From IMG/VR virus record IMGVR_UViG_3300037427_003924: a DNA stretch of 20,000 nucleotides. The stretch is one strand, 5' to 3'. Positions 9,141 to 18,963 of the stretch are shown here, piece by piece (positions within the stretch are counted from its first letter, which is position 1; each line of letters begins with the position of its first letter). The notes below the pieces were generated by a model. It saw only the letters and a program-made list of their open reading frames with translations, did no database searches and was not told where the DNA came from. Origin of the DNA: an uncultured virus (IMG/VR IMGVR_UViG_3300037427_003924). Lineage: Duplodnaviria; Heunggongvirae; Uroviricota; Caudoviricetes. The position numbers and the translations under genes are program-made.

Positions 9141-9377
9141 ATGAGGGATAGAAGAAAGAAAGCAGCAGAGGTAATCGACTTAACCCGTTTAGATATGGCC
9201 GGAGTCGAGGGTACATTGAAGTTCATTAGCGAAAGCAATGGGGATATCCAAGAGTTAAAAGAGATGGTTAACTCACAAAGGTTAATTCTTCAGAATCTAC
9301 GCAAAGGCTTAAACAAGCCAATGTTTCAAGACGGATTCGCTTCACCCCTAGGATTTGACTTACAAGACGAAGCATGA
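9141..9377 (+). CDS. Early hypothetical protein (near-leaderless)
   Basis: TTGACA(9103-08)-16-TATACT(9125-30)-10 nt-ATGAGGGAT. Confidence 0.85.
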   Translation: MRDRRKKAAEVIDLTRLDMAGVEGTLKFISESNGDIQELKEMVNSQRLILQNLRKGLNKPMFQDGFASPLGFDLQDEA

Positions 9378-11458: not shown

Positions 11459-11505
11459 TATTTGACTGGTTCGTATTTCTTATTTAATAAATTACAAATC
11501 CGAAT

Positions 11506-11679
11506 TTAATCGCCGCTCTTTTTGCCATAATTAAAACTCATTCGATTTTTCTTATTGTTATAGCCTTCTGGTTCCAGCCCGTTCTTCTTGAGCCATTTCT
11601 TGTAACCAGCATCAACTTCTTTGGCTAGGCCCGTTGTGTCGCCGTAACCCCAATCACCTTGTTTTATTATGTCTTGCAT
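11506..11679 (-). CDS. Small protein (57 aa), similar to 15634..15828
   Basis: MQDIIKQGDWGYGDTTGLAKEVDAGYKKWLKKNGLEPEGYNNKKNRMSFNYGKKSGD; starts 2 nt after the upstream stop; not in the ORF track. Confidence 0.7.
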   Translation of the reverse strand: MQDIIKQGDWGYGDTTGLAKEVDAGYKKWLKKNGLEPEGYNNKKNRMSFNYGKKSGD

Positions 11680-11681
11680 TG

Positions 11682-11963
11682 TTATTCCGAAATGGTTTGA
11701 CGAATCTCTTTCATCTTCTTCTTTAGAAAAGAAACAGCCTCACAGTTTTTGGCATTAGTTTGGATGATATGCCCTAGACTGTACTCTATCTTACGCGTGA
11801 AGTCTCTGCGTAACGCATCCAACTTATCTGCATCCGCTCGCTTTATTGCGCGAGTCTTCTTGACCGCTTTCTTCTTTTCGGCCTTTTGTTTTAAATGTTT
11901 TGTCTTCACTTTCTTTTCTTCAAATGCCTCTAGTAACTTTTCGTAATTACTTACTTTATTCAT
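11682..11963 (-). CDS. Lys-rich hypothetical protein
   Basis: Start revised to ATG 11963 (MNKVSNY); the upstream extension lies in the RNA candidate. Confidence 0.75.
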   Translation of the reverse strand: MNKVSNYEKLLEAFEEKKVKTKHLKQKAEKKKAVKKTRAIKRADADKLDALRRDFTRKIEYSLGHIIQTNAKNCEAVSFLKKKMKEIRQTISE

Positions 11964-11976
11964 ACTATTAAAATAA

Positions 11977-12425
11977 GATGGTGGCGGGAGTATTTGTGTA
12001 CCCGCACCTTTTCTGTACCCAAGAAACAAATGTTTCTGATCTACTTACTTCGGACTCACCCGCGATTTTCCTCAACCGATTGGTCTCTGTACTTCTCGCA
12101 GTCGCTGCATTATCCCCGTGGGAGGGATTATTCTGCCACACCGACCTCTCTCCGTCGAGAGAGGAAATTGATAGGTTGCCGCCGCACCACCAGCAGTAAA
12201 ACGGGCGTGAGTTCGTGCCTCACAGGGGTATTTAACTCCGTCAACCTAAATGAATCGCTCTTGAGAAACTTCTCATTCTTAACCGTTTCAAGTCGAGTTA
12301 ACGACTGTCATGCTTTCAACGCGTTTATAGCTCAGAAAGACGTGATTAAGCGCATAGCCCAAGTTTTTTAGTGTTATGAGAGAGTCCTTTTGCAGGACAA
12401 TCTTTAGACTGCTAAACTCAAGAGC
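11977..12425 (-). ncRNA. Large structured ncRNA candidate (GOLLD-like)
   Basis: Gap without a credible ORF; preceded by boxA; long-range helix 12417-12425 with 12257-12265; many local hairpins; co-oriented with a tRNA. Confidence 0.6.
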
Positions 12426-12429
12426 AAAT

Positions 12430-12440
12430 TTTCAAAGAAC
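12430..12440 (-). promoter_or_regulatory. boxA-like antitermination signal
   Basis: GTTCTTTGAAA on the minus strand, as in rRNA leader boxA elements. Confidence 0.55.
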
Positions 12441-12625
12441 CTAAAAATTGTCTGGGGGTGATTAGCATTGTATTCCTACCCTAATCTTTTAAGTCAGCCC
12501 AGCCTGACACACCATAAACATGAAACGATAATATTAAATACAACCTTCGCTGATTAACCTCCACCAGCAGGGATTATCAAATGACAAACAATAATAAACA
12601 TTCCCCGAAGGGAAACTAAAGTATA

Positions 12626-12871
12626 TCAGCAACGGTCTGGCAATGCAACCTTTTTCTTTTCCGTCTCCAGATTCTCAAACTTCTTGTCCATGCCTTCGTC
12701 ATCCCAGTCGAAAGAAAAGTATTCATCAAATACCTTGGAGGCTATCCGTCCCTCTACGCTTTGAGTCGCTGCTTCTTTCAGCATAAACTTCATAGCTTTG
12801 AGTCTTTTCCGCATTTCTTCAGTACCCGCTTTTGTTCGCGGCCTCAACCAATGATCATCCATTTGTTTCAT
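12626..12871 (-). CDS. Hypothetical protein
   Basis: 81 aa; ATGA overlap with the upstream gene. Confidence 0.8.
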   Translation of the reverse strand: MKQMDDHWLRPRTKAGTEEMRKRLKAMKFMLKEAATQSVEGRIASKVFDEYFSFDWDDEGMDKKFENLETEKKKVALPDRC

Positions 12872-13509
12872 ACTTCTAATTTCGCTTCCCTTAACTGCTT
12901 ATGAGTATACCGTAGTCCGGCATTCCATGCAAGCCTTTTCTTCTTCGGTTCGGGAATATAAAAAATATTAAAGTGAGGCCCGATGGCAGTTTTATCCCGA
13001 AGGATTACCCTGCTAGACTTGTAGATAGGCTTCTTGCTTATATCCTCTACAAAAGTCTTATACTTATAAGGATTGTAATATGCACCTTTAAATTCTTCTC
13101 CCGACTCTGGAATGCAATTCTCGCACCAAGAATACTCTCCTTCGTTACGGCAGTTGCAGCCCCAAACCTTTTTCAAGTTACCATCTTCCCCTTTCTCAAA
13201 ACGATAGGCTTGGTGGTCTCCTTCGTTTACCCATGTGCCAATAACATAAGCGTGAACGTTTTTGCGCTTCTCACGGACAACACGTTGACGACCATTCTCG
13301 TTAACGTGAAACTTGGCATTCTTTAGCTCGACTCGGTGACTATGGCAATATAATCTCCCCGTGCTAGTATCAACTACAGAAAGGCAATCCTTCTGAAGAT
13401 TGTAGTAAACTTTCACCCGATCAGGTGCAACAGGGCAACCCATGTAAGTCTTGCGGGTTTCTGCATCGGCCCAGCTAATGAATCCTTTTGGTTCTTCTCT
13501 TTCCCTCAT
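12868..13509 (-). CDS. Conserved phage protein of unknown function (VYxNL / REKRKNVHA / YNPYK family)
   Basis: Motifs recalled from many phage hypothetical proteins; TTGACT(13543-48)-17-TATACT(13520-25)-10 nt-ATGAGGGAA. Confidence 0.85.
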   Translation of the reverse strand: MREREEPKGFISWADAETRKTYMGCPVAPDRVKVYYNLQKDCLSVVDTSTGRLYCHSHRVELKNAKFHVNENGRQRVVREKRKNVHAYVIGTWVNEGDHQAYRFEKGEDGNLKKVWGCNCRNEGEYSWCENCIPESGEEFKGAYYNPYKYKTFVEDISKKPIYKSSRVILRDKTAIGPHFNIFYIPEPKKKRLAWNAGLRYTHKQLREAKLEV

Positions 13510-13571
13510 AACTTCAAATAGTATAAGTTAAATTGTTTCTAGAGTCAACTATAAAAATAACTTTTTTAAAT

Positions 13572-13645
13572 TGGACGCGAGGGAGGGAATCGAACCCTCA
13601 ATTGTTCTTTTGCAGAGAACCGTCTTGCCGTTTGACCACCCCGCG
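13572..13645 (-). tRNA. tRNA-Cys (GCA)
   Basis: Acceptor CGCGGGG/CCTCGCG, anticodon arm GTTCT-CTGCAAA-AGAAC, T arm GAGGG-TTCGATT-CCCTC, discriminator U73, encoded CCA; 74 nt. Confidence 0.96.
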
Positions 13646-13738: not shown

Positions 13739-13837
13739 AGGTGTTAATAATATCACACTTTACACATATGTCAACAGTAAAAATGTTTTTTTTAGGGGTT
13801 GACAAGTAGACCCTTTTATCCTATACTCATCCCAGTT

Positions 13838-17985: not shown

Positions 17986-18963
17986 TTAACTTGACTTACG
18001 TTTTTCTAATAATTGTGGATTTTTCTCAAACATTAGTTTCGCATCATTAGTTAGCTGCCTCCCATGTGCCGTTGCCTCAATGAAGTTTAGCTTTTGCAAG
18101 TAGGTTTCTGCATCAGATTGAATTGCTGCCCTAGTCATCTGGAGTTTGGCGGCGAGGTTGTATAGTCGCACGGTTCCCTCCCGATGTAGAGTACGCAAGT
18201 AACGAAGCTCAGTCTTATTCATGCCATGCGGCATAATGTCCAATATGCGGCAAAGTTCCTTCCAGTCTGATAACTTAAAGGTTTTAGTGTTATTCGCCGC
18301 TACATAAGATTTGATATTAGTTGCCATCTTTTGCGCTGCCCTGCCATTGCCCCGTAATGCTGGTGCGATATGTTTTGATACGATATCACCAGAGAATCTA
18401 ATCTTATCAGTATTAAGCAGAAGTATCTGACCTAATTCATCATAAGAATAATCATCCAAGTCGATACGCTCCATGCGATCAATCAAAGCATGGAATACCT
18501 CTTGTGGCTCAGTAGTTGCAAACAGAAAACTTAATTTTCTGAAATCAATCTCAATGTCCGTCCCTTCATAACTAAAAGTGTTATGGTTATCCTTATTGGG
18601 ATTGGTTATAGTTAATAAAGCCATTGTTACGTCCTTGGGTAACATATGACATTCATCAAATAGAACAGTAGCGTCCTCATTCTGCATATGAGGAATCATT
18701 ATCATCTCAACGAATTGTCTGAGATTTTTAATCGTAGCACAATTTAGCTCAAGGAATTTCTTGGGATTCATTGTGTTTGGCATGATAAGATTCCGAGCAA
18801 ATGCCCTTGCCAACATAGTTTTACCAGCACCTTTAGGTGCTGTGAGCATGATATTAGGGACGATCCCTGTCCTTTCAAACGCTTTGATATAAAACTCAAA
18901 CTTACGCTTGGCAGGGTGCTGCCCGATCACTTGTGGGAATAATGTAGTAGATGTAGTAGTCAT
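17986..18963 (-). CDS. ruvB: RuvB-like AAA+ ATPase (Holliday junction branch migration helicase family)
   Basis: VIGQ, Walker A APKGAGKT, Walker B VLFDECH, sensor FATTE, ALIDR, RGNGR and winged-helix tail ETYLQKLNFIEATAHGRQLT; TTGACT(18997-19002)-17-TAATAT(18974-79). Confidence 0.85.
   Translation of the reverse strand: MTTTSTTLFPQVIGQHPAKRKFEFYIKAFERTGIVPNIMLTAPKGAGKTMLARAFARNLIMPNTMNPKKFLELNCATIKNLRQFVEMIMIPHMQNEDATVLFDECHMLPKDVTMALLTITNPNKDNHNTFSYEGTDIEIDFRKLSFLFATTEPQEVFHALIDRMERIDLDDYSYDELGQILLLNTDKIRFSGDIVSKHIAPALRGNGRAAQKMATNIKSYVAANNTKTFKLSDWKELCRILDIMPHGMNKTELRYLRTLHREGTVRLYNLAAKLQMTRAAIQSDAETYLQKLNFIEATAHGRQLTNDAKLMFEKNPQLLEKRKSS

Follow-up and report, generated by a model that had tools for sequence, protein, structure and literature searches.

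A divergent manA-like RNA behind a boxA-bearing, cassette-built leader in a probable transcription unit of an uncultured marine phage

In rRNA operons, a promoter-proximal boxA and the Nus factors make RNA polymerase resistant to Rho and to hairpin terminators, and two classes of large phage RNA, ROOL and GOLLD, themselves form multimeric RNA assemblies. A further RNA, manA (RF01745), was described as a candidate for cis-regulation that occurs in marine metagenomes, in T4-like cyanophages and in two gamma-proteobacteria (PMC2864571), and a preprint reports that canonical manA RNAs self-assemble in vitro via kissing loops into a 60-mer icosahedral shell, decamers and octamers (10.64898/2026.07.01.735769). 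Here, we describe a manA-like RNA and the probable transcription unit to which it belongs in a 20,000-nt stretch of DNA (the window) from an uncultured virus of the Caudoviricetes, which is part of the 28,888-nt IMG/VR record IMGVR_UViG_3300037427_003924 (CheckV completeness 18%). An earlier, sequence-only reading of the window had flagged positions 11977 to 12440 as a structured non-coding RNA of about 450 nt behind a boxA signal, either a compact variant of GOLLD or a new class.

The identity of the RNA was determined by searching positions 11800-12800 against Rfam 15. At E ≤ 10, six matches were obtained, none of them to GOLLD, ROOL, tmRNA, RNase P or introns; five were noise (E 1.6 to 9.6) and the sole strong one was manA, at 12162-11974 on the minus strand, with 46.3 bits, an E value of 1.6e-10 in this 1-kb search and coverage of model positions 1-192 of 192. 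The supposed resemblance to GOLLD was thus not confirmed, and the 3' sequence that had been likened to GOLLD (GAGTCCGAAGTAAGTAGATC...CCCGCCACC) corresponds to P4 and P5 of the manA-like core. The gathering cut-off of RF01745 is 55.2 bits, and at gathering thresholds the window yielded tRNA-Cys only and no GOLLD or ROOL. In its own 28.9-kb record the core matched manA with an E value of 1.1e-12 and was the only copy there; likewise, two phage genomes of 90% and 100% completeness each contained one copy of the core.

Relatives were reached by two routes. Firstly, with two flanking proteins as the starting point, ten loci were found on seven further contigs, near-identical or related contigs extending up to 144 kb (90% complete) and 170 kb (100% complete). 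The same sub-threshold manA match was present in six of the seven distinct contigs reached via flanking genes (five full-length and one truncated); the seventh (L005) ends at the contig edge. Secondly, the invariant 19-nt word of the core was used as a pattern, which retrieved 21 viral loci, at least 119 metagenome stretches and six genome stretches, and 15 of 16 pattern-found viral loci carried the manA match (E 4.5e-10 to 1.3e-6). Scores in the relatives ranged from 38.1 to 49.7 bits, with 27.3 bits for one truncated match. Further, an nhmmer profile built from the first 17 sequences recognised 116 of 125 new loci, among them only one of the six genome matches (L051), so the other five genome matches are ascribed to chance. 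The final core set comprised 113 full-length copies, corresponding to 89 distinct sequences (alignment A5); its sampling rests on one exact 19-nt pattern, its mean identity is 85%, and the structure was derived from the same sequences.

The likeness to manA extends over the full length of the alignment (E 1e-10 to 1e-12) and includes the setting, a marine phage RNA directly before a gene. In the cmscan alignments, the core and manA have in common the GACG loop of P1 and the motifs GUG.C.GAAUAA, UAA.G and GGGUA...UCCC.CC.CC, and the P2 letters GAAUAA and AUAA(U/C)G align with the consensus. Both RNAs therefore show the P1 GACG loop, a multi-helix junction with a long-range closing helix, P2 with GAAUAA/UAA, a 3' hairpin GGGUA...UCCC and complementary P4 and P5 loops. 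The position in a potential 5' untranslated region (UTR), as described for manA, was also observed, the start codon lying 11 nt past the Rfam match. In contrast, the central P3 domain and the outer P4 stem of manA were not recovered, since cmscan shows non-canonical runs and deletions there; this P3/P4 region is rebuilt in the subfamily, whose own P3 and P4 helices covary. The subfamily scores 38-50 bits, always below 55.2, whereas a cyanophage manA copy scores 100.6 bits (PMC9964418). It also differs in its partner gene, which constantly encodes a small basic protein instead of the varied metabolic genes of canonical manA, in an invariant GAAAAGGUG that together with a U-rich tail gives a terminator-like alternative, and in its carriers, 144-170-kb phages without psbA (0/2) and without cultured relatives. 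Because the scores stay below the cut-off and the central region is rebuilt, we file the core as a divergent variant and not as a member by the Rfam threshold; from its sequence, the 3' 190 nt of the interval represent a divergent manA subfamily, evidently related to manA.

The architecture of the core was tested by covariation in A5, on a structure with the topology of manA that takes in P1, the long-range closing helix GGUG/CACC, P2 with its GAAUAA/UAA internal loop, the P3 domain, P4 and P5. Pairing was kept in 99.3% of 3738 cells, compared with 92.4% in shuffles and 44-52% with slid partners. Compensatory changes were found in 20 of the 42 pairs (1-5 in slid controls), with at least one in each of nine helices; five of the eight pairs of P1 and four pairs in the P2 helices were among those with such changes. 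The closing helix, invariant in the first 17 sequences, varied in the larger set, where pair 27/190 was U-A in 85 sequences and C-G in four, and in these four the competing local pairing turns U-G. This helix had been placed by the sequence-only reading at gtggc (11981-11985) and gccac (12135-12139): both strands were right, but the register was not. The conserved register is GGUG (12142-12139) with CACC (11983-11980), backed by the change from U-A to C-G in 4 of 89 sequences, whereas the other register requires a G at column 31, which only 25 of the 89 possess.

Further, the P4 loop AUUU is complementary to the P5 loop AAAU: 96.7% of cells pair, and pair 141/179 is U-A in 81 sequences and A-U in eight. 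The Rfam consensus of manA is likewise complementary in those two loops (aCUgu and acAgu). We infer that this pairing corresponds to the 'pseudoknot?' of the 2010 manA figure legend and to the published kissing loops; it is compatible with kissing contacts within an oligomer and could equally be intramolecular. A scan of all column pairs of A5 for tertiary pairs was swamped by lineage-linked columns and was clean only for the P4-loop/P5-loop pairing. The pairs 82/91 and 83/90 fit two haplotypes and may be due to chance.

The other helices proposed earlier were all present: cctctctc (12145-12152) with gagagagg (12157-12164), agaaaca (12022-12028) with tgtttct (12031-12037), gcggg (11984-11988) with cccgc (12001-12005) and, upstream of the core, gtcct (12384-12388) with aggac (12394-12398), which reads GTCCC/GGGAC in L021. 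They go beyond chance, since five helices (P1, the P4 tip, P5, gtcct/aggac and a 9-bp closing helix described below) keep pairing through compensatory changes. The case for structure is comparative and not thermodynamic, because the single-sequence folding energy of the 482-nt stretch is unexceptional: z was -0.82 on the minus strand, where 22 of 100 shuffles folded equally well, and lower, -1.86, on the plus strand (2 of 100 shuffles).

The minus-strand gene run is broken by 662 nt (11964-12625), from the stop of the ORF at 12626-12871 to the ATG at 11963, in line with the gap of about 650 bp that had been noticed. On balance, we consider it probable that this interval is the untranslated part, about 650 nt (~12613 to 11964, minus strand), of one phage transcription unit that comprises leader cassettes, the manA-like core and a small protein gene. 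The features of this unit in transcriptional order, followed by the ORFs that overlap the gap, are:

12620-12648, minus strand: promoter-like site, TTGCAT (12648-12643), 17 nt, TATACT (12625-12620), within the last codons of the upstream gene
12600-12616, minus strand: UUCG-capped hairpin GUUUCCC-UUCG-GGGAAU followed by a U-rich run, terminator-like in a scan
12548-12569, minus strand: hairpin with conserved loop UGGAGGUUAA, stem UGCUGG/UCAGCG here and UGUUAG/CUAACA in relatives
12452-12508, minus strand: H-type pseudoknot, hairpin GUCAG-GCUGGG-CUGAC whose loop CUGGG pairs with a downstream CCCAG
12426-12440, minus strand: boxA-like box and spacer GUUCUUUGAAAAUUU, conserved behind the pseudoknot
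12257-12425, minus strand: V1, a 169-nt stem-closed domain with closing helix GCUCUUGAG/CUCAAGAGC, containing the gtcct/aggac hairpin
12163-12247, minus strand: B1, a three-helix domain of 85 nt, ACGG/CCGU around the hairpin UGUGAG/CUCACG, then CUGCUG-GUGGUG-CGGCGG
11974-12164, minus strand: manA-like core RNA, with the RF01745 match and covariation in 89 sequences
11964-11979, minus strand: U-rich tail AUCUUAUUUUAAUAGU, located past the closing helix and before the start codon
11682-11963, minus strand: gene of the constant partner downstream, a lysine-rich helical protein of 93 aa (KTKHLKQKAEKKK...)
11994-12371, plus strand: ORF of 125 aa
11978-12199, plus strand: ORF of 73 aa
11968-12141, minus strand: ORF of 57 aa

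Compensatory pairs were present not only in the core but also in the pseudoknot, V1 and B1, which supports the view that the interval encodes structured non-coding RNA on the minus strand. From the promoter-like site, transcription is expected to start near 12613, so that the untranslated unit probably begins about 170 nt upstream of the 5' end that had been flagged. In relatives, the promoter layout is TTGACA-N17-TAGACT or TTGCAT-N17-TATACT, with a regular-expression match in 44 of 59 contexts. Where a leader is present, this site is located 166-615 nt before the core, inside the last codons of the upstream gene; in leaderless loci a TTGACA-N17-TA...T site is found about 19-22 nt before P1, and a same-strand gene ends 4-50 nt before the core. 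The UUCG hairpin (-6.5 kcal/mol, z -1.38) follows directly after the -10 box in many relatives and, judged by its sequence, appears to terminate the upstream gene and/or to form the stem-loop at the 5' end of the leader transcript. In the hairpin with the conserved loop (-8.4 kcal/mol), both partners are exchanged at two positions of the stem (C-G to U-A and G-C to A-U), as seen by eye. One contig from an RNA library (X16) represents a relative without this hairpin, 33 other letters replacing 91 nt at the joint of 12508 to 12600.

The alignment of the pseudoknot (A3) holds nine distinct sequences and 19 pairs in four helices, and pairing was kept in 100% of 143 cells. Five pairs were compensatory, including a pair of the pseudoknot helix itself (A-U in four, U-A in four). 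An optional inner hairpin in loop 3, GAUUAG..GUA-GGAA-UAC..CUAAUC, is missing in three relatives. When the pseudoknot was used as a pattern against viral contigs, 10 of 15 matches fell at this locus type, the other five being chance hits in unrelated DNA. A sigma-70 promoter CTGACT...TACAAT inside the pseudoknot was considered and rejected, as relatives switch TAC to CGC with the base pairs preserved. In L018, L021 and L051, a stem-closed cassette of about 55 nt (GGUCGC...CUAGG..CCUAG...AGGUAGCACCU...GCGACC), not present in the window, lies between the pseudoknot and the boxA-like box.

This box had been recognised in the earlier reading as GTTCTTTGAAA, which is the reverse complement of 12430-12440 and occurs in one exact copy in the window. 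It is conserved ahead of the RNA in all 31 distinct pseudoknot contexts, 0-11 nt after the pseudoknot, or 60-66 nt where another cassette intervenes, as G[TC]TCTTTG in 26, GCTTTTTGAAAA in four and GTTCTTTTATATAA in one, and its sequence resembles (U/C)GCUCUUUAACAA with an AUU-bearing spacer. We take TGTTCTTTGAAAA to be the boxA of Bacillus rrn operons; a literature search for the Gram-positive-type boxA word found no paper. With its flanking G's, the box agrees with 12 of the 17 positions of the Escherichia coli rrn boxA-spacer ugcucuuuaacaauuua (PMC2724277), and the box of L021 agrees with 14 of 17. The likeness to rrn leaders and lambda nut sites (PMC2724277) lies in GUUCUUUGAAAAUUU, which matches most of the E. 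coli boxA-spacer including the spacer AUU, and in the layout: the box is promoter-proximal, a folded element precedes it, as boxB precedes boxA in rrn, and a long structured RNA that is not translated comes after it. The locus differs in that the neighbour of the box is an H-type pseudoknot instead of a simple boxB hairpin, and in that there is only one such site per contig.

Directly downstream of the box, GCTCTTGAG, the reverse complement of 12417-12425, finds its inverted repeat gctcttgag at 12257-12265, as had been observed; together they form the 9-bp closing helix of V1. Twenty distinct V1 homologs of 137-196 nt were collected, for which RNAalifold gave 22 pairs, six of them compensatory in three helices; for example, closing-helix pair 2/228 is C-G in 14 and U-A in six, and pair 130/207 is C-G in nine and U-A in nine. 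V1 is absent in L004/L022 and L009/L013, and all three matches of its pattern in viral contigs were at this locus. It holds a conserved GCUAUAAACGCG word at 12331-12320. The 12-mer GCTATAAACGCG at these positions (12320-12331, minus strand) recurs in L025 and L028, inside a cassette that differs in the rest of its sequence; it bears a loose resemblance to TATAAATA, presumably a T4-type late-promoter word, and the fit to that consensus is not exact.

For B1, the alignment (A4) of six sequences contains 16 pairs, with pairing in 100% of 96 cells and four compensatory pairs. Pairing of its single strand ACCCC with the GUGGUG loop was examined and rejected, since the registers differ by module type and no clean covariation resulted. 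L003 and L025 have other sequence at the position of B1. In L018, L025 and L028, a cassette …GGGACAGGGAUGGUAAGACAUYUUACGC… replaces most of B1, the only parts that the two have in common being the word AGUUGRCG.AGUUAAAUAC on the 5' side and the last hairpin. None of the leader elements matched Rfam, either in the window or in the scanned relatives. In the 59 distinct contexts that include 600 nt or more of upstream sequence, the pseudoknot was found in 33, the last B1 hairpin in 37 and the V1 start word in 22, and 13 had no upstream element at all. The constant unit is composed of promoter, manA-like core, U-rich tail and small protein, and the cassettes of the leader are optional. Each cassette joint repeats the word (A/C)AATTTG (~12425-12430 in the window; L023, L021 and L028), which may reflect cassette exchange by recombination at microhomology, or a processing site.

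At the 3' end of the core, the strand CACC can choose between two partners. The invariant GAAAAGGUG before P5 is its local partner, and the resulting stem GGUGCGGG/CCCGCCACC has 9 bp, is GC-rich and folds with -12.6 kcal/mol (z -2.95; 0 of 200 shuffles as good). Both pairings, with the distant and with the adjacent GGUG, are possible in 89 of 89 sequences, and the 9 nt past CCRCC contain 4-8 U in 88 of 89. Single-sequence minimum-free-energy folding and RNAalifold pick the local hairpin; covariation backs the long-range helix. As judged from sequence, the tail and the local stem look like an intrinsic terminator. When this was tested, the loop was found to be 12 nt long, the tail of the window interrupted (AUCUUAUUUU) and the covariation in favour of the competing helix; the hairpin was not listed by a terminator scan, probably because its loop exceeds the 3-8 nt limit of that scan.

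The 93-aa protein encoded downstream has a homolog on the same strand behind the core in 74 of 85 distinct loci (tblastn), and four of the 11 misses are visibly homologous (MKTKHAQRKAEKRK...). Across loci the partner protein is basic and helical and has 71-93 aa, and in 12 relatives examined its start codon lies 2-8 nt past the modelled RNA end. No Pfam family, PHROG family or informative database name was found for the 93-aa protein, which AlphaFold2 models with a mean pLDDT of 82.6 as two helices (4-69 and 74-92). A different gene follows the core in L079, L023 and L111. In L125, L120, L170 and L076, the core is followed by further non-coding sequence in place of the protein gene. That non-coding sequence includes another copy of the word of the conserved-loop hairpin, CTGTTAGTGG.

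Contigs from four RNA libraries (three studies) covered 12097-12283, 12121-12271, 12141-12256, 12222-12369, 12360-12510, 12375-12508 and 12560-12710, and bridged the joints pseudoknot-boxA-V1, V1-B1 and B1-core. These contigs provide a weak hint of expression; missing cover over 11500-12096 and 12711-13000 is uninformative.

Taken as one transcription unit, the locus might work as follows. A sigma-70-like promoter at the end of the upstream gene would drive the whole unit, in the order UUCG hairpin, conserved-loop hairpin, pseudoknot, boxA-like box, V1, B1, core, 11 nt and start codon of the small protein. The boxA-like box would recruit host Nus factors, by analogy with rRNA operons, and polymerase would then complete the long structured untranslated RNA without Rho-dependent or hairpin termination. 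The manA-like core would be the working part, a folded RNA in its own right and possibly a self-assembling oligomer, and the choice of CACC between the distant GGUG (the manA fold) and the adjacent GGUG (the terminator-like form) may set the transcription or translation that reaches the protein gene. Since promoter and start are 0-30 nt apart for the other genes of the window, a leader of 650 nt stands out as an exception, and the RNA is probably produced for a role of its own.

Several observations weigh against this interpretation. The -35 box of the window agrees with the consensus at three of six positions and a consensus scan does not list the site; further, because the hairpin at 12616-12600 is terminator-like, the leader is possibly reached by read-through only. 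The RNA contigs have a depth of 2-4.7, two of the four libraries were made with oligo-dT, DNA carry-over is possible and neither strand nor ends are given; no RNA contig lies over 11974-12096. With regard to the core, the cut-off of 55.2 bits was reached by none of 23 manA matches (window and relatives) and by none of four phage records, L023 has no manA match at E ≤ 1, and the central third of the manA model aligns poorly, with many non-canonical marks. Finally, because of the one-pattern sampling and the identity of 85%, the covariation reflects a narrow clade, in which many compensatory cells are shared by descent.

Among the alternatives, a classical cis-acting riboswitch, in which the core senses a small molecule and controls the small protein gene only, the cassettes being unrelated decoration, is a tentative explanation to which we give minor weight. 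A possible role as a riboswitch in 5' UTRs was suggested for manA (PMC2864571), the core is 2-8 nt from the start codon in most loci, and the two mutually exclusive 3' pairings exist in every sequence of A5. Nevertheless, no manA ligand is reported among the literature matches listed, the protein encoded downstream belongs to no metabolic family, the protein gene is missing after the core in four distinct loci (L125, L120, L170 and L076), and the preprint describes self-assembly of manA RNAs free of ligand (10.64898/2026.07.01.735769).

It is doubtful that the locus is an operon of several RNAs, with the pseudoknot, V1, B1 and core cut from one precursor at the AU-rich AAUUUG joints as separate small RNAs, each with a function of its own. 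Every cassette has a closing helix of its own and is present or missing independently of the others, the joints repeat (A/C)AAUUUG, boxA after the promoter is the layout of an rRNA operon, and the same strand carries a tRNA-Cys 1.4 kb further upstream. However, no processing sites or discrete RNA ends were observed in the low-depth RNA contigs, which span the joints, and the cassettes were never found away from this locus when the pseudoknot and V1 patterns were searched in viral contigs.

An elaborated form of our interpretation, which we think unlikely in its entirety, is a phage 'RNA operon' built like an rRNA operon, with a strong promoter, a pseudoknot-boxA antitermination signal and exchangeable stem-closed cassettes joined at AAUUUG linkers. 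Its terminal manA-type RNA would form a multimeric particle during infection, the co-transcribed lysine-rich protein of 71-93 aa would be the dedicated partner or cargo of that particle, so that the virus would make a small compartment of RNA and protein, and the switch between the long-range GGUG/CACC helix and the local terminator hairpin would couple folding or assembly of the RNA to production of the protein.

A feature at the DNA level, V1 being a miniature mobile element or recombination cassette whose 9-bp terminal inverted repeats form a helix without any role as RNA, is very unlikely. Presence and absence of V1 between close relatives and flanking AATTTG repeats that resemble a target duplication would fit it, but the terminal repeats change in a compensatory manner (C-G:14 / U-A:6 and C-G:13 / U-G:5 / U-A:2), two internal helices covary, and V1 was always found in one orientation and at one locus, with no dispersed copies in the viral contigs.

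We find a single large ornate RNA of about 450 nt, as a compact GOLLD-like variant or a new class, scarcely tenable. The stretch is indeed long, ORF-free, structured, phage-borne and on the same strand as a tRNA, as with GOLLD and ROOL, and the helices proposed for it are real. Yet no covariance-model match to GOLLD or ROOL was obtained at E ≤ 10, the 3' part is manA-like, the conserved unit has 190 nt and another architecture compared with 600-800 nt for those classes, and the flagged span is made up of four pieces, each conserved separately: close relatives have lost V1 and B1 or carry other sequence instead, and in 13 of 59 loci every upstream cassette is missing and the core stands alone behind its promoter.

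A missed protein-coding gene, such as the 125-aa plus-strand ORF at 11994-12371, can be practically dismissed. This ORF exists, and antisense frames of 45-110 aa stay open in relatives because the DNA is conserved. However, none of the three gap-overlapping ORFs has a Pfam match, variable alignment columns show neither codon periodicity nor third-position bias (31/29/29 for the three positions mod 3), relatives differ in the frames and in their lengths, and the substitutions preserve base pairs. Leader mini-ORFs (10 aa, ATG at ~12464; 20 aa, TTG) were also rejected, as they are not conserved in relatives.

As for the surroundings of the unit, the flanking phage genes are of unclear role and encode a Phage_L5_gp82-family protein, a GP88-family protein, DUF932, a RuvB-like ATPase and an endolysin-like protein. 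A look-up of sequencing runs pointed to marine metagenomes, 20 of the 24 rows listed, from 18 studies, carrying at least part of the stretch. Neither blastn of 11900-12700 against 50,697 phage records nor tblastn of the 93-aa protein gave a match, and the best matches of the RuvB-like ATPase are merely 24-25% identical, so that no cultured relative and no host can be named. psbA was found in neither of the two large relatives (144-170 kb). The T4 gp23 family had no match in two related phage genomes, which is uninformative, as the control genomes gave none either.

A tRNA-Cys(GCA) is located at 13572-13645 on the minus strand, the same strand as the RNA and 1.4 kb upstream of it, and a tRNA is found at a comparable upstream distance in six related loci. 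It is preceded by a near-consensus promoter, TTGACA-16-TATTAT with TG (13747-13774, minus strand), and a second promoter, TTGACT-17-TATACT, lies before the gp82-family gene (13520-13548, minus strand). No Shine-Dalgarno boxes were seen upstream of 19 ORF starts in the window (e.g., 12868-13509, 9141-9377 and 17986-18963), and in several cases a -10-like box precedes the ATG by only about 10 nt. This sequence pattern suggests that the mRNAs of the window are leaderless or have very short leaders, and the absent Shine-Dalgarno boxes and short leaders may hint at the host group. The true RNA copy of L051 is on a 15.8-kb contig binned with an uncultured Enterobacterales metagenome-assembled genome, such binning of a phage contig not being host evidence, and one 144-kb relative is classed as 'provirus' by IMG/VR; both are possible host leads.

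Since the core belongs to a known class, the surprise of the finding is reduced. What appears to be new is the constant partner, a small basic protein, the terminator-like 3' alternative and a leader built of cassettes with a pseudoknot beside boxA. This leader supplies three RNA elements that are supported by covariation and absent from Rfam, namely the pseudoknot next to boxA, V1 and B1, and, by analogy with rRNA operons, it is likely that the phage borrows the rRNA antitermination system of its host for a non-coding RNA. As for manA itself, an orphan RNA since 2010, the 2026 preprint describes RNA-only cages in vitro with no known biological role. The subfamily described here adds a constant genetic partner, a defined promoter, a possible switch between fold and terminator, and a natural series of loci with and without the boxA leader, and owing to these the role of manA in infection becomes testable with simple constructs. 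Should manA-type RNAs form their in vitro assemblies in cells as well, the multimeric RNA particle would be a theme that they have in common with GOLLD and ROOL.

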